Below are positions 17,734 through 46,207 of a stretch of 64,000 bases of DNA, one piece after another. Made by a program: the position numbers and the translations under genes. Every line of letters starts with the position of its first letter. Within the stretch, counting starts at the first letter, position 1. Source of the stretch: Escherichia phage AV112. Below the pieces are notes generated by a model. That model made no database searches, was not told the origin of the DNA, and saw nothing but the letters and a program-made list of their open reading frames with translations. The DNA lies in sequence record OR352942.1, one strand, 5' to 3'.

Positions 17734-19547
17734 TGGTGTTTAACCCTATGCATGATTTCTTTATTTTTGCCGAGATTAAATCCGCGTTCGTTCGGATTTC
17801 CAAGATAACCGCATGTTCTTCTTATTGTGTTCATCTTTTTAGGATCAGTTTCTCCGCAAACTGAACAAACAAATCCGGTTTCAGTAGGAGTCATTTCATG
17901 AGTACTTCCACATGTAAAACATTTATCTACTGGCATATTAACACCAAAATAATCTAAATGTTGTGCAGCATAATCCCATACAGCCTCAAGACCTTTTAGG
18001 TTATTTTTCATATCAGGAAGTTCAACATAAGAAATGTGACCACCAGTCGCAATGAAATGATATGGCGCTTCACGAGAAATCTTTTCAAACGGAGTAATAT
18101 TTTCTTCTACTGAAACATGGAAACTATTAGTGTACCAGCCTTTATCAGTAACATCTTTTACACTTCCATATTTTTCTGTATCAAGTTTACAGAAGCGATA
18201 ACAAAGGTTTTCAGCAGGAGTAGAATACAAGCTAAAAGCAAAACCGGTTCTTTCAGTCCACTGCTTAAGACGAGCATTCATTTTAGTTAAAATTTCTTGC
18301 CCAATATCACGTCCGGCAAGAATATTCAATTCGTGAATACCAATGTATCCTAAAGACACTGAACTTCTACCGTTTTTAAATAACTCAATTATATCGTCAT
18401 CAGGTTTAAGACGAACCCCGAATGCACCTTCTTGGTAAAGAATAGGAGCAACAGTAGCTTTAACTCCTTTTAAGGAACTAATTCTACACATCAAAGCTTC
18501 AAAACACAAATCCATTCGCTCATTGAACAATTCGATAAATTTCTGTTCATTGAACTGTGTTCCAATATAAGAATCTAACGCAATGCGAGGAAGATTCAGT
18601 GTTACAACACCGAGATTATTACGTCCATCAAGAATTTCATTACCAGTCGAATCTTTCCATACGCTCAAGAAACTACGGCAACCCATTGGAGAAACAGGAA
18701 TAGACGAACCAGTGATAGCTTTATTGTTCTTAACTGAAATAATATCAGGATACATTCTTTTGCTTGCGCATTCTAAAGCAAGCTGTTTAATATCATAGTT
18801 CGGGTCGTCTTTATAAAGATTAACACCCTCTTCAACGAACATAACAAGTTTAGGGAAAATAGGAGTTATTCCATCACGACCAAGGCCTTTAATACGATTT
18901 TTCAGAATTGCTTTCTGAATCATTCGTTCAGTCCAGTCAGTTCCAGTACCAAATGTAATTGTTACAAAAGGCGTTTGTCCGTTTGAACTAAAGAGAGTAT
19001 TTACTTCGTATTCATACGCTTGGAATGCATCATATACGTCTTTTTCTGTTTTAGATTGAGCATAATTCAACGCATCAGCGATTTGCCATTTTTCTGCATC
19101 TTCAATATGTTTTGCATAGGTGCGTTTAACATAAGGAGAAAGAACTTTATCGACATTCGCAAATGTAGTTCCACCATACTGATGCGAAGCAACCTGTGCG
19201 GTAATTTGTGCCATAATTGCAGTAGCAACACCAATCGATTTAGGCGTTTCAATTTGAGCATTGCCTAATTTAAATCCATTCTCAAGCATTCCTTTTAAAT
19301 CTACTAAACAGCAATTAGTAAAAGGCAATGATATACTGTAATCTAAATCATGAAAATGAATTAATCCAACATTATGTGCATTTACAATATGACTTGGAAG
19401 AATACGACAAGCGATATGTTTAGAAACAATACCGGCCATTAAATCTCTTTTTGTTGGAAAGACACGAGAATCTTTGTTGGCGTTTTCGGTATTTAATTCT
19501 TTATCTTTATTTGAAATAAAATTTAAAACATCTTTCTCTAAAGACAT
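17730..19547 (-). CDS. nrdD: Anaerobic ribonucleoside-triphosphate reductase NrdD (glycyl radical enzyme)
   Basis: 605 aa with the C-terminal glycyl-radical motif RRTCGYLGNP and a Zn-ribbon CxxC pair; one uninterrupted ORF, so no intron. Confidence 0.95.
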   Translation of the reverse strand: MSLEKDVLNFISNKDKELNTENANKDSRVFPTKRDLMAGIVSKHIACRILPSHIVNAHNVGLIHFHDLDYSISLPFTNCCLVDLKGMLENGFKLGNAQIETPKSIGVATAIMAQITAQVASHQYGGTTFANVDKVLSPYVKRTYAKHIEDAEKWQIADALNYAQSKTEKDVYDAFQAYEYEVNTLFSSNGQTPFVTITFGTGTDWTERMIQKAILKNRIKGLGRDGITPIFPKLVMFVEEGVNLYKDDPNYDIKQLALECASKRMYPDIISVKNNKAITGSSIPVSPMGCRSFLSVWKDSTGNEILDGRNNLGVVTLNLPRIALDSYIGTQFNEQKFIELFNERMDLCFEALMCRISSLKGVKATVAPILYQEGAFGVRLKPDDDIIELFKNGRSSVSLGYIGIHELNILAGRDIGQEILTKMNARLKQWTERTGFAFSLYSTPAENLCYRFCKLDTEKYGSVKDVTDKGWYTNSFHVSVEENITPFEKISREAPYHFIATGGHISYVELPDMKNNLKGLEAVWDYAAQHLDYFGVNMPVDKCFTCGSTHEMTPTETGFVCSVCGETDPKKMNTIRRTCGYLGNPNERGFNLGKNKEIMHRVKHQ

Positions 19548-20359
19548 AATTCTAATTTATCCTTTTGAAATTCTTCGTCTAAATATGGGTTCCAACCCAT
19601 TTTAAACCTTTTGATGAAATTATCAATTCTAAATTTCGGTAAGTTTAAATCCGCAAAAATAGATGATTTACTTTTAAAATCTGGACCTAAATAATCATAT
19701 AAAATTTCTGCGTATTTTAACCATAATATACAAGTACCAGATTTAATTGCGTTCGGAGTTTTCCAAGGTTTTACACCATACATCGGATTTCCACTTCCTT
19801 TATGCCTGATAGAAGATGAAATTCCAATTTTAATTTTAGCTTCCTTTGTATGCGAAAATCCACGATGCGGATTTTCTTTCCAGTATTTTTTAGAAGCTTC
19901 TGATATTTTCTTTCTGGCTAAATTAGTATGATGCTTTCCATAAAATCCATGATTTTTGCCTTTATTACGATTTCTTTTAATCATGGTTATTGATTGCTTT
20001 TCTCTAGTTTCTTTAGAAGGAGAAATACCATATGTCGTAAATTTGCCATCAGCATATGCTAAATTAAAATACTCTTTATTCCATACATCTTTTTCTATAT
20101 TCTTTTGAAATTCAGCTTCAATGCTAGTTATTTGTTCATCTCCGACTAATTGAAAATATAATATTTCAACTTTCGGCGTTTCTTTCAATAAGGCTTTTTG
20201 AAATTCGGAAGATGACGAAGACGAATAATAAAATTTACCATTTTTATCAATAATATTCGTTCCATCAAAAGTGCAATTGGTTTTACTTCCAATGTAATAA
20301 TATGGTGGGGTTTTAGCATTAATTCTATTAATAAATGATAGTTTATATACTACATTCAT
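19538..20359 (-). CDS. GIY-YIG homing endonuclease (free-standing, Seg-like) with NUMOD3 repeats
   Basis: N-terminal VVYKLSFINRINAKTPPYYYIGSKTN (GIY-YIG core); C-terminal repeated KNHGFYGKHHT / ENPHRGFSHTKEAK / GSGNPMYGVKPW helices. It sits between 49 and nrdD and overlaps both. Confidence 0.75.
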   Translation of the reverse strand: MNVVYKLSFINRINAKTPPYYYIGSKTNCTFDGTNIIDKNGKFYYSSSSSSEFQKALLKETPKVEILYFQLVGDEQITSIEAEFQKNIEKDVWNKEYFNLAYADGKFTTYGISPSKETREKQSITMIKRNRNKGKNHGFYGKHHTNLARKKISEASKKYWKENPHRGFSHTKEAKIKIGISSSIRHKGSGNPMYGVKPWKTPNAIKSGTCILWLKYAEILYDYLGPDFKSKSSIFADLNLPKFRIDNFIKRFKMGWNPYLDEEFQKDKLELCL

Positions 20360-21926: not shown

Positions 21927-22186
21927 TTAAAATATTCTCGCAGTTGGTCGAATCCACCAATGTGACTTCCGTCAGGAGCAAACACTTGAGGCATAGTCAA
22001 TCCGACTTGTGATTCACGTCCAAGCTTAACCAGAAGCTCAGCAATTTTCTCATCATCAAAAACACCTTTTTCTGGCATAACATTAATGAATTCGAATGGC
22101 TGTTTCTTAACAGTCAGTAATCGTTTCGCATTATCGCAATAAATGCATTTATGAATAGTAGAGTCATACCCGTACACTTTAAACAT
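21923..22186 (-). CDS. nrdC: Glutaredoxin NrdC (T4 thioredoxin)
   Basis: Start trimmed to MFKVYGYDSTIHKCIYCDNAKRLL, which is near-identical to recalled T4 NrdC (87 aa). Confidence 0.9.
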   Translation of the reverse strand: MFKVYGYDSTIHKCIYCDNAKRLLTVKKQPFEFINVMPEKGVFDDEKIAELLVKLGRESQVGLTMPQVFAPDGSHIGGFDQLREYFK

Positions 22187-22592
22187 TATTTTTCCTTTCA
22201 TCGATTAAATATGCAACGCCAAATACAATACATGTAATAAAACCTGTGATACAGATAGAAACCAACAACACTGTACCAAAGAACCAAATCAAGTTATCTT
22301 TAGTAGTTTGTTTGATATCCATCTCACGAATTTCTATAGCTATTGTATCACCTTTATTCAGAAGCGTATAAAACGACGGTGATACATGCCTGTCAAAAAC
22401 TCGACCTTGTTCATCTTTATAAACTGCAATAAATTCCAGTTTAGAATATTTTCCTGTAGATTGACCTGAAATTAATTCCACTACCTCCACAGGAATTACT
22501 TTAGTTTCCATGTAAGTATTCTGGCTGTTCCAAATGAATGGAATGATGGCAAAAACTAAAGCTACAATAAAACAACGAAGGCTATATCTCAT
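22179..22592 (-). CDS. Membrane protein
   Basis: 137 aa with N- and C-terminal hydrophobic segments. Confidence 0.5.
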   Translation of the reverse strand: MRYSLRCFIVALVFAIIPFIWNSQNTYMETKVIPVEVVELISGQSTGKYSKLEFIAVYKDEQGRVFDRHVSPSFYTLLNKGDTIAIEIREMDIKQTTKDNLIWFFGTVLLVSICITGFITCIVFGVAYLIDERKNNV

Positions 22593-22897
22593 TATAATGT
22601 TCTCTCAAATTTGTGGAAGCATTTACGGCATTTCAATTTCAAGTTATCAGTGGTCCAGTTAACCAGTTGGACTTGGATAGTTCCACATTCCGGGCATGGA
22701 TGTTTTGCTGCCGATTTGGCAGCATTTTCACGTCGTTCAACCATTTTCATTATTTCGTTCCATGCCGGAGGAACGAACTCTTCTTCACCGTGGATTTTAT
22801 CTCGCTGAACAAATTCAATCTTTGAACTATCGTCAATAAACTTAACCAAGCTGTGATTAGTGCTCATGTCAATATCCTCTAAAAGACGTAGTTTCAT
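22592..22897 (-). CDS. Zinc-ribbon protein
   Basis: 101 aa with CPECG...CRKC. Confidence 0.45.
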   Translation of the reverse strand: MKLRLLEDIDMSTNHSLVKFIDDSSKIEFVQRDKIHGEEEFVPPAWNEIMKMVERRENAAKSAAKHPCPECGTIQVQLVNWTTDNLKLKCRKCFHKFERTL

Positions 22898-23847
22898 TAT
22901 AAAACCTCAATGGCATTTCGTAAACCATCCGCTTTTGCATTCAGAGCTTTTAATGATTTAGTTTGTTCTGCAATCTGGGCTTCAACTTCTTTCAGACGAG
23001 ATTTGAGGTATTCGCGTTCTTCTCTTAAGTTATCAACTTTTTCTGCTTTAGGCTCTTTAATAGGCTTAGGTTTATACGTATTAGGGTTCTTCAGTTTAAT
23101 TAGAATGCGTGAACTGTACAGCATTGAACCATTATCTTCGGTTTCGTCATACATTTCCACTACGTCCATCATCTCCACCATCGTGCAGAGTTTATAAGAC
23201 AACGAACGAATAGTTTTGTTGTGCTTATTAATTTCTTTAGAGTTCATGGTGCCTAGATTACGCGAGTAGTAATAAGGAACCTGGATATCAACTGACAATG
23301 ATGCGTTACCATTGCCAGTTGGTTTGAATACTGCAGTAACCCAATCTTTAACATGAACTTTATTTGTACGGCCATCACCGCCAGTGAATAATTTACGAGA
23401 ATGTTTAAAAAGCATATTCACTTGGTTATTGAATTCACAAGCAAATTTATCAGCAAATTTAGTTTCAGGAATGGTAGATAACCAATCAGCTAAATGAGTC
23501 TTTTTAACATCGTTAATAATAGTAAATTCAACCAAATCAGTTTTAGATGTCACAGATTTAATAAAGCTCGGCTTCATAAAGTTTTTAATGTTATCGCGAG
23601 CTACAGTAGAAGATAATAAACGAGAACGTTTGAACCATTGAAGCAGTGTCCCTAATGAATGAGAATACGCATTCTGAGTATCTTTACAGATATGATTTTC
23701 TTGGCCTGTGTATGTACCAAAATCGCGAAGAATACCGCTTACTACAACTCGGTGTGGAACATCAAATCCTAATGAACCAGAAGCACGTTGGGCATGAACG
23801 TTAGCGATAAGACCTGCAAAATAATCAATGTAATGTGAACGTGTCAT
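22897..23847 (-). CDS. Hypothetical protein with coiled-coil C-terminus (tandem paralog 1 of 3)
   Basis: 316 aa; the C-terminal ~45 residues are heptad-rich (LREEREYLKSRLKEVEAQIAEQTKSLKALNAKADGLRNAIEVL). Confidence 0.55.
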   Translation of the reverse strand: MTRSHYIDYFAGLIANVHAQRASGSLGFDVPHRVVVSGILRDFGTYTGQENHICKDTQNAYSHSLGTLLQWFKRSRLLSSTVARDNIKNFMKPSFIKSVTSKTDLVEFTIINDVKKTHLADWLSTIPETKFADKFACEFNNQVNMLFKHSRKLFTGGDGRTNKVHVKDWVTAVFKPTGNGNASLSVDIQVPYYYSRNLGTMNSKEINKHNKTIRSLSYKLCTMVEMMDVVEMYDETEDNGSMLYSSRILIKLKNPNTYKPKPIKEPKAEKVDNLREEREYLKSRLKEVEAQIAEQTKSLKALNAKADGLRNAIEVL

Positions 23848-23875
23848 AATATTTTCCTCTCGTTAAGATAGAAAG

Positions 23876-23905
23876 ATTATACTCCAACCGTCCTTGGTTG
23901 TAAAC
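23876..23905 (-). promoter_or_regulatory. Sigma70-type early promoter
   Basis: Minus strand reads GTTTAC, an 18-nt spacer, then TATAAT. Confidence 0.5.
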
Positions 23906-23909
23906 TGAT

Positions 23910-24842
23910 TTATGATTTTAATGCATTCATTGCGTTAAAAAGTTTAGAGTACTGCAACTGGAGCTTGGTAACTACTTGTTGAGCATCACGAAGCTTAGCT
24001 TGTGCTTTGTCAAGTTCAACAGACAGTTGATCCACAGTGCCTTTGATTTGATTATAATAGTAATCTTCGGCAGGAAGAAGGCCGTTAGAGATTTCCAGTT
24101 TAGTCGTCGGTGTGCCGTTAAACATAACAGGTTGTGCTGAAGCTGCATTAATCTTACCGATAGTCGGGGCGACAATAATTGACGCTTCGAACGTTGCATT
24201 TTCCTTTTTAAGATTTTGATAGTATTCAGAGTCTTTGTGCCACCATGGCGCAGGAACCTTTTTACCAATAGATACACGAGCCTGGATAGCGATATGGCCC
24301 TTATTCTTGATAACGTCGATAATATTAAGCTCACGAGAATAAATTGCTTTAATCTGGTGAATATTATCACCTAACACTTCCAACGCTTGGTGGAATACAC
24401 GAGCAACGTTATCATTCTTAGGTTTATACGTAAGAGTGAACTCGTTCTCACTGATAACCATGATTTCTAACTTATCGTAAGTATATTTCAAATGTTTCAT
24501 GTTAATTGCTTGAGGACGAATACGAGAAGCAATGGCCATCAGATTGTTAAGGTTATTCCGGAACTGCTTAGCGAAATATTGTCCTTCACCACCAATACAA
24601 AAATTACGAAGTTTCTGTTTGGCTAATAAACGGCTGAACTCACCGTTTTTAATGAACTCTTTAACGGGTGTGTTAGTAACGCATTCAAATTGAGTAAACT
24701 TACGAGAAGTAATCCCATAATATGAACAGATTTCCTCAATCTCTTCAGGAGTCTTTACAGGCATACGGATAGGATTAGGACCTGGGGTATATGCGTTCGA
24801 GGTAAATTCTTTGATAAGTTCTCTACGTGTAATAGAAGCCAT
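23910..24842 (-). CDS. Hypothetical protein with coiled-coil C-terminus (tandem paralog 2 of 3)
   Basis: 310 aa; C-terminal coiled coil (VDQLSVELDKAQAKLRDAQQVVTKLQLQYSKLFNAMNALKS). Confidence 0.55.
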   Translation of the reverse strand: MASITRRELIKEFTSNAYTPGPNPIRMPVKTPEEIEEICSYYGITSRKFTQFECVTNTPVKEFIKNGEFSRLLAKQKLRNFCIGGEGQYFAKQFRNNLNNLMAIASRIRPQAINMKHLKYTYDKLEIMVISENEFTLTYKPKNDNVARVFHQALEVLGDNIHQIKAIYSRELNIIDVIKNKGHIAIQARVSIGKKVPAPWWHKDSEYYQNLKKENATFEASIIVAPTIGKINAASAQPVMFNGTPTTKLEISNGLLPAEDYYYNQIKGTVDQLSVELDKAQAKLRDAQQVVTKLQLQYSKLFNAMNALKS

Positions 24843-24897
24843 TTTATATTCCTCATGTTGAAAAATTTATTATACTCCAACCATCCTTGGTTGTACA

Positions 24898-25893
24898 TCA
24901 TTCCTTAAGAAGTTTTACTACTTGAATAAGATTAGCTCGTTCTGTTTTATTTTTACCGTTTAAGCCTGCTAATCGTGAGATTTCATCGTCAGTCTGTTGA
25001 ATAGTTACATTAAGTTCGTTAATCAAAGCTTCAAAGTATTTGATTTGCTCAGCATGTTTTGATTCAAATTTCTGAACCGGAATAACGTCTTGGTTTAGTT
25101 CATCAATAAGGTCTTTAAGAGCATCTTCTTGATTGATATCATATTCAACTTCTTTTATTTCTTCAACGAGCTCGTCTTTATATCTAACGTCTTTTAGTCC
25201 TGGTGCTGGTCCTGAAATCTCTTCTTTAAGAGTACAAACATATCCAATACGGTATCCAATGCCGTCTCGCTTGATATCAACTTCGTCAATAAATCCACAA
25301 TGTTTAAGACCAGAGCCGATTAAGTCAAAATATCCTTGACGACGTCCTTCAAACGTTACACGAACTACTAAGACAGTTTTACCTGCAACCTTTTGAAGCT
25401 CACATTTATAAAAGTTTGTTGAACCTGAATAACGTGGATGAGTTTTAAAGTTCATCTGACGATCTAGGCCCATTTGTAAGCGTGCTGATACGGCCATAAA
25501 ACGTGTTTGGTTCTCGTTAAGATGAGCAACAATCCATTTCAAAGGCATTTTACACTGTTCACGACCGAACAAATCAGTACGTCCTAGATTACGCAGGATG
25601 TTGTTAGAGTTAATCATCGACAGAACATTAAGTTTATTCAGCGCGCTGAAGATTCCATCAGCCATTGATTTTCCGTAACCTTTACACGCTTTAATAAGCG
25701 CTCGCGGTAGATTAGCATAGATTTCAGACGGCATATGAAAATCAAATTTACTAGTCAGTAATTGATGAACTTGGATAGCAATTTGCTCATAATTAAGTGC
25801 TCTGCGATCATTATGATCTTTAAACCACACTTTAATCTGTGAAGCACATAAACCGTTAATTTCATGTTTTACCGCATCAGATGTAATGCTCAT
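24898..25893 (-). CDS. Hypothetical protein with coiled-coil C-terminus (tandem paralog 3 of 3)
   Basis: 331 aa; C-terminal coiled coil. Confidence 0.55.
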   Translation of the reverse strand: MSITSDAVKHEINGLCASQIKVWFKDHNDRRALNYEQIAIQVHQLLTSKFDFHMPSEIYANLPRALIKACKGYGKSMADGIFSALNKLNVLSMINSNNILRNLGRTDLFGREQCKMPLKWIVAHLNENQTRFMAVSARLQMGLDRQMNFKTHPRYSGSTNFYKCELQKVAGKTVLVVRVTFEGRRQGYFDLIGSGLKHCGFIDEVDIKRDGIGYRIGYVCTLKEEISGPAPGLKDVRYKDELVEEIKEVEYDINQEDALKDLIDELNQDVIPVQKFESKHAEQIKYFEALINELNVTIQQTDDEISRLAGLNGKNKTERANLIQVVKLLKE

Positions 25894-25928
25894 ATCTATT
25901 TCCTCAGATTGAATTGGAACTCAAAACC

Positions 25929-25953
25929 ATTATAACCCGTCCTTGGGTAAAGC
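25929..25953 (-). promoter_or_regulatory. Candidate MotA-dependent middle promoter
   Basis: Minus strand reads cGCTTTA (MotA-box-like), a 13-nt spacer, then TATAAT. Confidence 0.4.
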
Positions 25954-25955
25954 GT

Positions 25956-26483
25956 TTATGCGTGAACCGTCTTTAAACGTTCTTCAAATTTCCGAAGAGT
26001 ACTAATACGTTCTGCTTTCTGTTTTGTATAGTTTGCAATACGTTCTGAAGTGAGAGCGTATCGTTCGTTTACTGTTTCTTTCATGAAGTCAGGGATTTCA
26101 CGAGAAGCTTTAATTTCATCAAACTTATCGAGTACTGCCTGGTCTTCAGCGATTAAATTTTCGTACATCTCGATATCTTTCTTGATGAAGTCGATATCTT
26201 CCTGGGTTACTTTGGATAAACGAGATGCTTTATCCTTTTTGTATTGCTCGTTAGTTTCACGAGACCAGAATAATGTACGTTTTTTGTTAGTGTTTTTGTA
26301 GACTTCCACAATTCCAACTGAATCGATGATAGCAATCCAATTCCAGCGAGATTTGAAAATCTGACCTCCGTCCACGGTAATCTCGTTACCATAAGCAACA
26401 TCATTAAAGAACTTGCTTTGTGCTTCAGATTTAAATTTACCGTCGTTATAATTTACCAGGTTGAAAATATCTTTAGCGTTCAT
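25956..26483 (-). CDS. Hypothetical protein
   Basis: 175 aa ORF. Confidence 0.5.
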   Translation of the reverse strand: MNAKDIFNLVNYNDGKFKSEAQSKFFNDVAYGNEITVDGGQIFKSRWNWIAIIDSVGIVEVYKNTNKKRTLFWSRETNEQYKKDKASRLSKVTQEDIDFIKKDIEMYENLIAEDQAVLDKFDEIKASREIPDFMKETVNERYALTSERIANYTKQKAERISTLRKFEERLKTVHA

Positions 26484-26510
26484 GTTTTACCTCCAGTAGT
26501 TGATAGGTCT

Positions 26511-26539
26511 ATAATAACACAACCATAGACCTTGTAAAC
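26511..26539 (-). promoter_or_regulatory. Sigma70-type early promoter
   Basis: Minus strand reads GTTTAC, a 17-nt spacer, TATTAT, then AGACCTATC. Confidence 0.55.
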
Positions 26540-26541
26540 AA

Positions 26542-26829
26542 CTAAAAGAAACTTTTTTCGGTATTTTTTCCACTGAACCAAACCGACTTCGGGACTTTCT
26601 GTAATTTTTCGGATTTAAGTTTCTCTTCCTGTTCTTTCTTATATGCATCCTTGTCGTACTGGAACAATTCTAAGGCATTCTTTTGTAGACGGTCTAAGGT
26701 AATTAAGGCTTTAGTTTTTCCTTTCAAGGAAGAGTCCTGGCGAACCTCCTCGCTATATTGCATCGTAGAACTAACCATACGATGAGCATACAGTTCGACT
26801 GCGGCTTTAATTTTTTGCATAAAATCCAT
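26542..26829 (-). CDS. Hypothetical protein
   Basis: 95 aa ORF. Confidence 0.45.
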   Translation of the reverse strand: MDFMQKIKAAVELYAHRMVSSTMQYSEEVRQDSSLKGKTKALITLDRLQKNALELFQYDKDAYKKEQEEKLKSEKLQKVPKSVWFSGKNTEKSFF

Positions 26830-26967
26830 AACATATCCTCTTTGATTTGTACACCATTATTTTTAAATATTTCTATGCCCTCAGTAGGTTCCTGGTGTCC
26901 TTCTTTGAGGTAAGCCATATGATTATTCATCTTTATGGCTTTTGTTACCTCAGAACTTCCTATAAGC

Positions 26968-27969
26968 TTATTTCAGTAAAGTAACTTCAGAGATTTCCTC
27001 CCAACCATCTTTATCAGTTGAAATAAAATCTGCTACATAAAGAGCCGTACGTAATGATACATTGCGAAGACGAGATACATTAGCCTTCATCCAGGACAAT
27101 GCTTTATACGTTTCTGCATCTGTCAGACCACGTTTCTGCATCATGTCAGTAGATAATATTACATCTTCAACTCGAACCATAATCTCTTCATTAGAGTGTA
27201 CTCCAAGGTCGAGATACACTGAACGAGATACTAAAGCTTGAAGGTGTGGGGCAAGTTTCGAACCGCGTTCTAACTCTTTATCGATATCAACGTTTGTAAT
27301 GAAAACGATAGTACCTTCAAACTCAAATTCTTTATCAATACCCTTATCATCGAGATAAGATGACGCAGTGCTCCAACAAACTTTGCGTTTATCTCCAGTA
27401 TCTAATGCTGCTTTAAGAAGGTTCAAGATGTCCATATCTGAGAATACGTCAACGTCGTCGATTAAGAGAACGCTGTCTGCATCACGGTTGAGCCAAAGTT
27501 GTTCGTAAAGGCCAATACCGGAGATTTTACCATTAATGCTTTTGTATTTGATGAAACCATTATCATTAGCGTTATTAAGTGCTTTATCCAGAGAATACGT
27601 CTTACCAATACCGGCTGCACCTGAAATAATGAGTGAACGAATTTTGCCATCGATAATGCCATTCGTCATCATGTTCATTACTTTAAAGCGTTTGTTGATA
27701 CGAGTTTTCATATCTTCAGTGCTTTCAACAACTGCAACTGGTGACGTCTCAACTCCTTCCATTACGATGTCTGATTTGAAGACCCATACTCCACGTTCAG
27801 ACCCATCAATCATAACGAAAATTTTACCATCACCTAAGTGGGAACATTCAGGATTAAGCTTTGCTGGGAACCATGTCTTTGTGGCAACATAAGAACCAGA
27901 GATTTCGTTATTACGATAAATACCTTTTTTGATTTGAACGTTGAACATTTTATTCTCCAATTTACTCAT
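26968..27969 (-). CDS. P-loop NTPase (AAA-like ATPase)
   Basis: Walker A IISGAAGIGKT and Walker B VLLIDDVD. Confidence 0.6.
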   Translation of the reverse strand: MSKLENKMFNVQIKKGIYRNNEISGSYVATKTWFPAKLNPECSHLGDGKIFVMIDGSERGVWVFKSDIVMEGVETSPVAVVESTEDMKTRINKRFKVMNMMTNGIIDGKIRSLIISGAAGIGKTYSLDKALNNANDNGFIKYKSINGKISGIGLYEQLWLNRDADSVLLIDDVDVFSDMDILNLLKAALDTGDKRKVCWSTASSYLDDKGIDKEFEFEGTIVFITNVDIDKELERGSKLAPHLQALVSRSVYLDLGVHSNEEIMVRVEDVILSTDMMQKRGLTDAETYKALSWMKANVSRLRNVSLRTALYVADFISTDKDGWEEISEVTLLK

Positions 27970-45901: not shown

Positions 45902-46183
45902 TTATTTGTACGAATTAATAATCTCTTCCATTTTATCCAGAACATGGATATCGATTATACGAGGAAGTGCCGAAAGATTAGAACCGTCGAAAGATTTAAG
46001 GTCTTCCAAAATAATATTTTCAATGGCCTTTAAAGCTTCCGCAGATTCTGATGCAGAATTAAATTCAGGAATTTCTCCAAAAAGACGTAAGAATGAACCA
46101 AAGTATTCTGCGGCGATTTCTTTAGCTTGTTCGATATCAGACTTAAACATTTTGTTTTCCTCATTTGTTGGTGGAGTAATCAT
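45902..46183 (-). CDS. Hypothetical acidic protein
   Basis: 93 aa ORF. Confidence 0.4.
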   Translation of the reverse strand: MITPPTNEENKMFKSDIEQAKEIAAEYFGSFLRLFGEIPEFNSASESAEALKAIENIILEDLKSFDGSNLSALPRIIDIHVLDKMEEIINSYK

Positions 46184-46207
46184 ATCACCATCCTTGGCGT
46201 TTGTACA

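Follow-up and report, generated by a model that had tools for sequence, protein, structure and literature searches.

Three neighbouring genes of Escherichia phage AV112 appear to be anciently diverged paralogues that, together with the nrdC.3, nrdC.4, nrdC.5 and nrdC.6 genes of phage T4, would make up a single superfamily confined to T4-like phages (Tevenvirinae). They lie in a stretch of 64,000 nucleotides (nt) from sequence record OR352942.1 (hereinafter designated the window). Over its bases 22000-27000 the window matches Escherichia phage AV113 (OR352943.1) with 100% identity; after this phage, an RB69-like Mosigvirus of the T-even group, we name the locus. A first reading of the letters of the window (hereinafter designated the original prediction) had described a tandem triplication of paralogous genes with C-terminal coiled coils, each gene with its own promoter. 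The three open reading frames (ORFs) of 316, 310 and 331 amino acids (aa) occupy exactly the coordinates given there, all on the minus strand, and are annotated coding sequences in OR352943.1. They are hereinafter designated A, B and C:

22897..23847, minus strand: gene A, 316 aa, orthologue of T4 nrdC.3; Pfam PF26897, phrog_1435
23910..24842, minus strand: gene B, 310 aa, DUF7235 (PF23882) member and distant homologue of T4 nrdC.5; phrog_2351
24898..25893, minus strand: gene C, 331 aa, nrdC.6-family member; Pfam PF26899, phrog_2257

Judging from their conservation in hundreds of phage genomes (tblastn matched 653 phage records for A, 154 for B and 741 for C) and from purifying selection within Mosigvirus, all three are real genes.

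Profile comparisons link A, B and C outside the coiled coil

Each gene has its counterpart in T4. A matches T4 nrdC.3 with 56% identity (BLASTP, E 1e-119), B matches T4 nrdC.5 with 24% identity over 308 aa (E 5e-10), and C matches T4 nrdC.6 (E 2e-18), sharing 32-38% identity with Tequatrovirus nrdC.6 and aligning across 92% of its length with the 295-aa nrdC.6 orthologues of most Tequatroviruses. The synteny from nrdC.2 to nrdC.8 around the three genes is kept as in T4; nrdC.4, the fourth T4 gene of this size in the row, is missing from AV113. B scores 373.4 bits against Pfam DUF7235 (E 1.3e-111, model positions 1-307; gathering score 30 bits), compared with 420.6 bits for T4 NrdC.5, while neither A nor C matches DUF7235 at E <= 0.1; they are remote homologues rather than members of that family. 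The assignments of A to PF26897 and of C to PF26899 were taken from precomputed annotation.

Compared with the 295-aa orthologues, the T4 reference nrdC.6 (275 aa; NC_000866, locus L001 9997-10894) leaves the reading frame close to its 3' end, and the conserved C-terminus ...SEREKLIKIVDLLKS* is readable in the nrdC.6-nrdC.5 gap annotated as intergenic, suggesting a frameshift, either in T4 itself or in the reference sequence.

Homologue searches with A, B and C individually returned close relatives only; an early hint of a wider link came from a BLASTP match of A to T4 nrdC.4 (E 1e-5) and from a recurrent 'SRLLS...L.NF' motif. Sequences from the window, from T4 and from 20 additional loci, among them Dhaka-, Gelderland-, Jiaoda-, Teguna- and Karamvirus regions located via the conserved neighbour nrdC.10, were aligned by family, and we compared the alignments with hhalign. 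The nrdC.3 and nrdC.4 families align over 214 columns (Prob 97.4, E 1e-11), nrdC.4 aligns with the nrdC.5 family including B (E 4e-4 locally; Prob 86.6, E 5e-7 over 274 columns globally), and the combined nrdC.3+4 profile matches nrdC.5 (Prob 78, E 1.8e-5). In other genera this position is occupied by single large ORFs, which add a web of links with E values of 1e-3 to 4e-5. The lowest E value in 78 comparisons with reversed profiles was 0.012. On these alignments, A and B very probably belong to one family.

A profile of 13 superfamily sequences extends the relationship to the nrdC.6 family including C, both locally (Prob 94.4, E 9e-8) and globally (Prob 97.6, E 2e-11), and a repeat of the comparison gave Prob 89.1 and E 2.3e-6. 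The local alignment pairs columns 60-212 with 73-207, covering the N-terminal and central domain and not the coiled coil. With the merged profiles, reversed controls gave E 0.07-0.6 and unrelated neighbour families E 0.28-0.97; the link was kept in all seven leave-one-group-out runs (E 7e-5 to 5e-7). When 513 ORFs were searched with HMMER, the first non-member matches of the superfamily profile were nrdC.6 proteins (2e-5 to 2e-3), and reciprocally the nrdC.6 profile matched the Karamvirus and Tegunavirus members (4e-4 and 7e-4), the next match being at 0.68. We consider it probable that the family of C is related as well.

A profile of nrdC.3 found just 5 matches among 1.84 billion representative proteins, indicating a narrow range for the family, and a scan of viral contigs found seven loci, all T-even. 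A family of ~260 aa encoded beside the large ORF in Gelderland-, Jiaoda-, Karam- and Tegunavirus was rejected as a superfamily member (E 0.28-0.94; absent from the list at E < 0.03).

Shared architecture and the weighing of paralogy

The aligned proteins follow a common plan. An N-terminal start M(x)TRxEYIxxF is followed by a helical region with FKxSRxLSxxxAxxxLxxF, a second motif FxxNxxxhLxxAxxL(xxGDxR), a small beta-beta-alpha-beta-beta unit with LxxALxxMDvVE and a variable low-complexity linker, after which a helix or coiled coil of ~45 residues ends in LxxAhxxLK; this C-terminal coil is present across the alignment of all 13 superfamily sequences. The original prediction placed the divergence in the N-terminal domains. 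Divergence there is evident, but the whole protein has diverged, and the short shared motifs run along its full length. The C-termini of the three proteins are as follows:

22900..23046, minus strand: A coiled coil, residues 268-316, ending ...LRNAIEVL (heptad scan, AlphaFold2 (AF2) helix)
23913..24047, minus strand: B coiled coil, residues 266-310, ending ...LFNAMNALKS (heptad scan)
24904..25053, minus strand: C helical heptad-like C-terminus, residues 281-330, interrupted at GLNGKNK, ending ...LIQVVKLLKE (weaker than A and B)

The heptad-scan scores of the A and B coils, at residues 268-316 and 269-310, were equalled by none of 200 shuffles, and in the AF2 model of A a single long helix (275-315, predicted local distance difference test score (pLDDT) 68-84) is the sole well-scored part. 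The model of C has three short C-terminal helices, broken at GLNGKNK. The coiled coils ascribed to all three C-termini are thus borne out for A and B, at ~45 residues, whereas the C-terminus of C is helical but interrupted. We infer that the coiled coils serve oligomerisation. The low-confidence models of A and C show the same element order, with about six helices, two or three strands, a helix, two strands, a disordered linker and C-terminal helices. Profile searches against the sequences of the Protein Data Bank found no related solved structure and returned coiled-coil noise only (e.g. prefoldin), and searches of NCBIfam and PADLOC gave no match. Neither families, motifs nor structures pointed to a biochemical activity.

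Several results tell against common descent of A, B and C. Pairwise BLASTP among them found nothing (E >= 0.2), hhalign on shallow alignments (Neff 1.2-1.5) gave E >= 0.05, and Pfam (PF26897, PF23882, PF26899) and PHROGs (1435, 2351, 2257) each hold three separate families. At the pairwise level, then, there is no significant similarity outside the coiled coil, and the original prediction of paralogues with comparable N-terminal domains fails at that level; it is recovered through the deeper profiles, whose homology lies outside the coil. AF2 confidence is low (pLDDT 53.1 for A from 25 sequences and 48.9 for C from 5), providing no fold-level confirmation. Fold searches of BFVD with these poor models returned the proteins' own orthologues and weak matches (template-modelling score <= 0.33), the latter being proteins of 300-370 aa from other T4-like phages that we treat as a lead only. 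The heptad score of C was equalled by 21 of 200 shuffles, the mark of a weak coiled coil. The T-even nrdC.3+4+5 profile alone does not match nrdC.6 significantly (E 0.037) and AV113 C itself reaches only E 0.28 against the superfamily hidden Markov model (HMM), so that the tie of C to A and B runs via the nrdC.6 family and via intermediates found in other genera. The superfamily alignment, finally, was built from sequences presumed to be related.

The absent pairwise similarity, the separate Pfam and PHROG families, the poor models and the weak HMM score of C would all suit three unrelated ORFans with independently acquired C-terminal coiled coils, the profile links then being artefacts of composition, helical periodicity and alignment by hand, but we judge this improbable: the significant alignments are colinear over 130-270 columns outside the coiled coil, the reversed-profile and neighbour-family controls all stay at E >= 0.01, the links outlast every leave-one-group-out run with reciprocal HMMER in agreement, BLASTP already sees the nrdC.3-nrdC.4 link, and A, B and C are all preceded by the same promoter-hairpin cassette.

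Divergence, selection and copy number

Compared with T4, AV113 retains 56% identity in A, 24% in B and about 35% in C, while endoVII, nrdC, nrdC.8, nrdC.10 and nrdC.11 retain 78-92%, indicating on these comparisons that the NrdC.3-6 family evolves much faster than its neighbours. Within Mosigvirus, the ratio of nonsynonymous to synonymous substitution rates (dN/dS) of A, B and C is 0.07-0.29. The genes are therefore under purifying selection gene-wide rather than forming the diversifying family that had been suggested. Nor are they the product of a recent tandem triplication: each is closer to a T4 gene (nrdC.3, nrdC.5 or nrdC.6) than to its neighbours, which dates the duplications before the split of Tequatrovirus, Mosigvirus and Dhakavirus.

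Copy number, whose distribution the original prediction had proposed as a check, varies among relatives, from four in T4 and three in AV113 to two in ESCO47 and about one in ACG-C40. Alleles have also been swapped between genera, with slur14 carrying a Mosigvirus-like nrdC.3 (78% identity) beside T4-like nrdC.4-6.

Two relatives show how the array has been rearranged. In ACG-C40 (locus L010 5805-6213), a 72-aa N-terminal fragment of nrdC.5 is followed by a C-terminal remnant of nrdC.3 that shares 75% identity with residues 245-316 of A, nrdC.4 having been lost; the arrangement is a natural deletion spanning three paralogues. In ESCO47 (locus L014 6414-7978), the neighbourhood is 92-100% identical to AV113 except for pin (81%), the C-like gene (68%) and nrdC.8 (78%), and B is absent. 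The divergent C-like and nrdC.8 alleles together with the missing B constitute a local mosaic replacement.

Promoter-hairpin cassettes in the gaps

The gap upstream of each gene holds a promoter-like element, and a hairpin is embedded in each of these elements:

23876..23904, minus strand: predicted early sigma-70-type promoter of A, TTTACA-17-TATAAT, 11/12 consensus matches
23885..23900, minus strand: hairpin CAACC[AAGGAC]GGTTG in the A promoter spacer, PeSL-type stem-loop
23876..23902, minus strand: 27-nt direct repeat copy 1, TACAACCAAGGACGGTTGGAGTATAAT, family D2
24869..24897, minus strand: predicted early sigma-70-type promoter of B, TGTACA-17-TATAAT, 10/12 consensus matches
24878..24893, minus strand: hairpin CAACC[AAGGAT]GGTTG in the B promoter spacer, PeSL-type stem-loop
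24869..24895, minus strand: second copy of the 27-nt direct repeat, 993 bp from copy 1 and 96% identical to it
25929..25957, minus strand: promoter-like element of C, AAACGCTTTA, then 13 bp containing the hairpin, then TATAAT, identified from sequence motifs
25935-25948, minus strand: hairpin ACCC[AAGGAC]GGGT in the C element, within the 13 bp before TATAAT

The A and B elements are each followed by a GAGG ribosome-binding site and ATG, and they resemble the GTTTAC...TA(Y)(W)AT early promoters elsewhere in the window. The C gap has a perfect TATAAT and no -35 element at 16-18 bp; a TTTAC motif is only 11 bp away, and CGCTTTA lies 13 bp upstream of the -10. T4 middle promoters carry the MotA box (a/t)3TGCTTtA at 12 +/- 1 bp (PMC2988021), a rule that the upstream element of C fits with one mismatch. 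This MotA-box-like sequence, AAACGCTTTA, overlaps the nrdC.8 stop codon. We infer that the C promoter belongs to the -10/MotA-box class. The claim of a promoter-like element in every gap accordingly stands for A and B, which have strong sigma-70-type elements, and in part for C, whose perfect -10 lacks a properly spaced -35. Promoter-like sites are not enriched across the region as a whole (21 found versus 25.5 expected), so the case for these promoters is made by their position, orientation, conservation across phages and the early expression of the T4 orthologues.

The sequence CCAAGGAYGG, which folds into the hairpin, is common to all three elements, and the window contains four copies in total compared with 0.06 expected. 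Hairpins with the AAGGA(Y) loop also lie upstream of T4 nrdC.3, nrdC.4 and nrdC.7 and of Dhakavirus nrdC.4-like and nrdC.6-like genes (loci L015/L016). Across Mosig-, Tequatro- and Dhakavirus the loop is invariant while the stems co-vary (CAACC/GGTTG, ACCC/GGGT, ATACC/GGTAT, CCAC/GTGG, AGCC/GGCT and CATCC/GGATG). The hairpin is part of the minimum-free-energy fold in six of the six gaps folded. Among 11 hairpin variants, a set chosen in part by the hairpin search itself, 89% of cells are paired, four of five pairs show compensatory changes, and the covariation score is 0.71, compared with 0.16 for shuffles and at most 0.18 for slid controls. A fixed, Shine-Dalgarno-like AAGGA loop is not what a plain attenuator stem-loop is expected to have.

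PeSLs, the promoter-early stem-loop cassettes of T4-type phages, are defined as early promoters with a stem-loop between -35 and -10, repeated in the hyperplastic region (PMC2839356; PMC4122927), and judging by their layout the promoter-hairpin cassettes of A, B and C fit this definition. Gene B is bracketed by the two copies of the 27-nt direct repeat. In ESCO47, which lacks B, the junction holds just one element, a chimera that corresponds in its left half to the context after C (the B promoter context) and in its right half to the leader of A. This is the footprint expected of PeSL-mediated gain or loss of one gene, presumably by recombination.

Two other roles for the hairpin were rejected. 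As an intrinsic terminator it has too short a stem and no U-run after it, and as a site of RegB cleavage at the GGAG just after it, its 3' context GGAGTATAAT does not fit the consensus GGAGRAYARAA.

The fourth copy of the CCAAGGATGG motif in the window (GATGTACAAACGCCAAGGATGGTGATATGAT) is at 46188-46197 on the minus strand, intergenic, far from the array and upstream of a 93-aa ORF (45902-46183). An exact 16-nt repeat of another kind, CTTAGGTTTATACGTA on the plus strand, is found at 23065-23080 and 24417-24432, within the coding sequences of A and B, where it encodes TYKPK at non-homologous positions (about residue 257 of A and about residue 138 of B). By a rough estimate such a repeat is unlikely to arise by chance in 4 kb, and it could be the footprint of micro-conversion or recombination.

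A candidate role in counter-defence

The one member of the superfamily with a gene-level phenotype points to a function. Dsr1 is a SIR2-domain (sirtuin) defence of E. coli ECOR17 that is countered by T4 NrdC.5 (Srikant, Guegler & Laub 2022, PMC9391042): a T4 clone missing part of the region does not plate on ECOR17 or on MG1655 carrying ECOR17 dsr1, and nrdC.5 alone restores plating (PMC9391042). T4 nrdC.3, nrdC.4 and nrdC.6 are expressed early as both RNA and protein, nrdC.5 has early RNA and middle protein (PMC9697503 supplement), and T4 nrdC.1-6 can be deleted (PMC9825161).

Because T4 NrdC.5 counteracts Dsr1, we consider A, B and C most likely to act in counter-defence. As an explanation of the whole array we put it at about an even chance, with greater confidence for B than for A and C. 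It also fits genes that are early and dispensable in T4, confined to T4-like phages, fast-diverging and variable in copy number, with alleles swapped between genera. Different host immunity proteins, or different variants of one, would be neutralised by one paralogue each, as Dsr1 is by NrdC.5, with the divergent body providing target specificity and the conserved coiled coil providing oligomerisation. A, B and C would be non-essential and transcribed early, A and B from their own early promoters and C from one of the -10/MotA-box type, and the promoter-hairpin cassettes would double as recombination sites for the gain or loss of single genes. The suggestion that such a family targets different host factors agrees with the action of NrdC.5 on Dsr1 (PMC9391042), but the adaptor role that the original prediction gave as an example is speculation.

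Two observations temper this proposal: the functional evidence is restricted to T4 NrdC.5, which is 24% identical to B, and dN/dS reveals no gene-wide positive selection in A, B and C.

The main rival, somewhat unlikely in our view, accepts the genes as true paralogues and assigns them to early takeover of the host (RNA decay, transcription or metabolism), the effect of NrdC.5 on Dsr1 then being indirect, e.g. by preventing its trigger. All of the genes are early and lie in a region rich in functions of host takeover. Host-mRNA destabilisation was reported to be lost in a T4 deletion that runs from tk to nrdC.2 and so takes out the array, the responsible gene then being unidentified (PMC3014915). 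There is moreover no published mechanism for NrdC.5. The family's only gene-level phenotype is nevertheless rescue on a Dsr1 host, and rapid divergence, presence/absence polymorphism and dispensability on laboratory strains are typical of arms-race genes. The host-mRNA destabilisation phenotype was later ascribed to srd, elsewhere in the genome.

Competition between phages, through superinfection exclusion or interference with co-infecting T-even phages, would equally suit genes that are early, dispensable, lineage-restricted and mosaic between close phages, and T-even genomes hold several exclusion genes; we regard it as a poor candidate, given that A, B and C have no membrane segments, nuclease motifs or family matches and that the NrdC.5 phenotype requires the host gene dsr1.

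Counter-defence can be taken one step further, although only tentatively and with less confidence than the role itself. The superfamily might be a modular counter-defence platform of T-even phages, in which a conserved scaffold with a C-terminal coiled coil allows homo- or hetero-oligomerisation of co-expressed paralogues, variable insertions retarget individual copies to different bacterial immune proteins, Dsr1 is the first target recognised, and PeSL-type cassettes, whose AAGGA hairpin would be specifically recognised, allow single copies to be swapped. Were this true, nrdC.3, nrdC.4 and nrdC.6 would be three undiscovered anti-defence genes in hundreds of therapeutic and model coliphages.

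Neighbouring genes and their annotation

The array is part of a hyperplastic early region that extends from nrdC to nrdC.11 and has its transcription on the minus strand. The surrounding genes are those for endonuclease VII, pin, nrdC, a nrdC.7-like membrane protein and nrdC.2, followed beyond the array by nrdC.8, nrdC.9, the nrdC.10 P-loop ATPase and the nrdC.11 nucleotidyltransferase. OR352943.1 labels at least nine genes of the block from nrdC.1 to nrdC.11 as 'thioredoxin', with A, B, C, the ATPase and the nucleotidyltransferase among them. The labels evidently propagate a name from 'nrdC.x', the sole thioredoxin/glutaredoxin being the 87-aa nrdC.

The membrane protein adjoining nrdC (22179-22592, minus strand, 137 aa) is a homologue of T4 nrdC.7 with 39% identity. 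In T4, nrdC.7 lies between nrdC.8 and nrdC.6, compared with its position beside nrdC in AV113, so that this module has been relocated within the region. The nrdC.10 P-loop ATPase (26968-27969, minus strand), which adjoins the array, is conserved far more widely than its neighbours: it occurs in 1311 phage records, which extend to KVP40-like phages of Vibrio, to Acinetobacter and Aeromonas phages and to RaK2 and other jumbo phages. A 273-aa homing-endonuclease-like ORF (19538-20359, minus strand), located between nrdD and endonuclease VII, has no counterpart in the T4, slur14, ESCO47, dhabil and L003 loci examined, which suggests a mobile insertion specific to AV113-like phages.

Significance and comparison with known systems

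T4 and RB69-type phages are the chief coliphages for model work and therapy, and their nrdC.1-nrdC.11 block is still called 'hypothetical' or, wrongly, 'thioredoxin'. The genes themselves, the PeSL concept and the NrdC.5 phenotype are already known, and the gain here is incremental. Two modest points appear to be new: on profile evidence, three database families, nrdC.4 and several genus-specific ORFans would form one superfamily, and the aligned cassettes seem to carry a co-varying hairpin with a fixed AAGGA loop. The link to NrdC.5 makes nrdC.3, nrdC.4 and nrdC.6 concrete, testable candidates for counter-defence, and close phages may plausibly come to differ in host range when single copies are gained or lost via the promoter-hairpin repeats that flank them.

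The nearest known system is T4 NrdC.5 itself. B resembles it as a full-length DUF7235 member in the same genomic position, with predicted early transcription, the same length class and a C-terminal coiled coil, and A and C resemble it as remote homologues of the same architecture. The differences are the low identity of B (only 24%), the lack of a DUF7235 match in A and C, and an anti-Dsr1 activity known for T4 NrdC.5 only. With respect to T4 nrdC.3, nrdC.4 and nrdC.6, A is the nrdC.3 orthologue and C falls in the nrdC.6 family, whereas AV113 is without nrdC.4 and has its nrdC.7 homologue moved beside nrdC.

The array also recalls the dmd-tifA-adfA 'anti-TA island' of T4 (PMC9391042), which is likewise early, non-essential and variable between close relatives, and is lost in genome-reduced or experimentally evolved phages at a price in host range; that island, however, consists of unrelated inhibitors, whereas the neighbours in the array are mutual paralogues. 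Like published PeSLs (Arbiol et al. 2010, PMC2839356; Comeau et al. 2014, PMC4122927), the cassettes combine a strong early promoter with a stem-loop that overlaps -10 or lies between it and -35; they are intergenic, flank ORFans in the hyperplastic region, occur repeatedly and have a gene insertion/deletion junction inside the element. Unlike those PeSLs, the cassettes of the array have short stems (4-7 bp) without a U-run, and their AAGGA(Y) loop stays the same in all three genera against a co-varying stem, a pattern that is not required of a simple attenuator. In the databases, finally, the nrdC.3 and nrdC.6 families and DUF7235 stand as unrelated, and the profile evidence presented here joins them.

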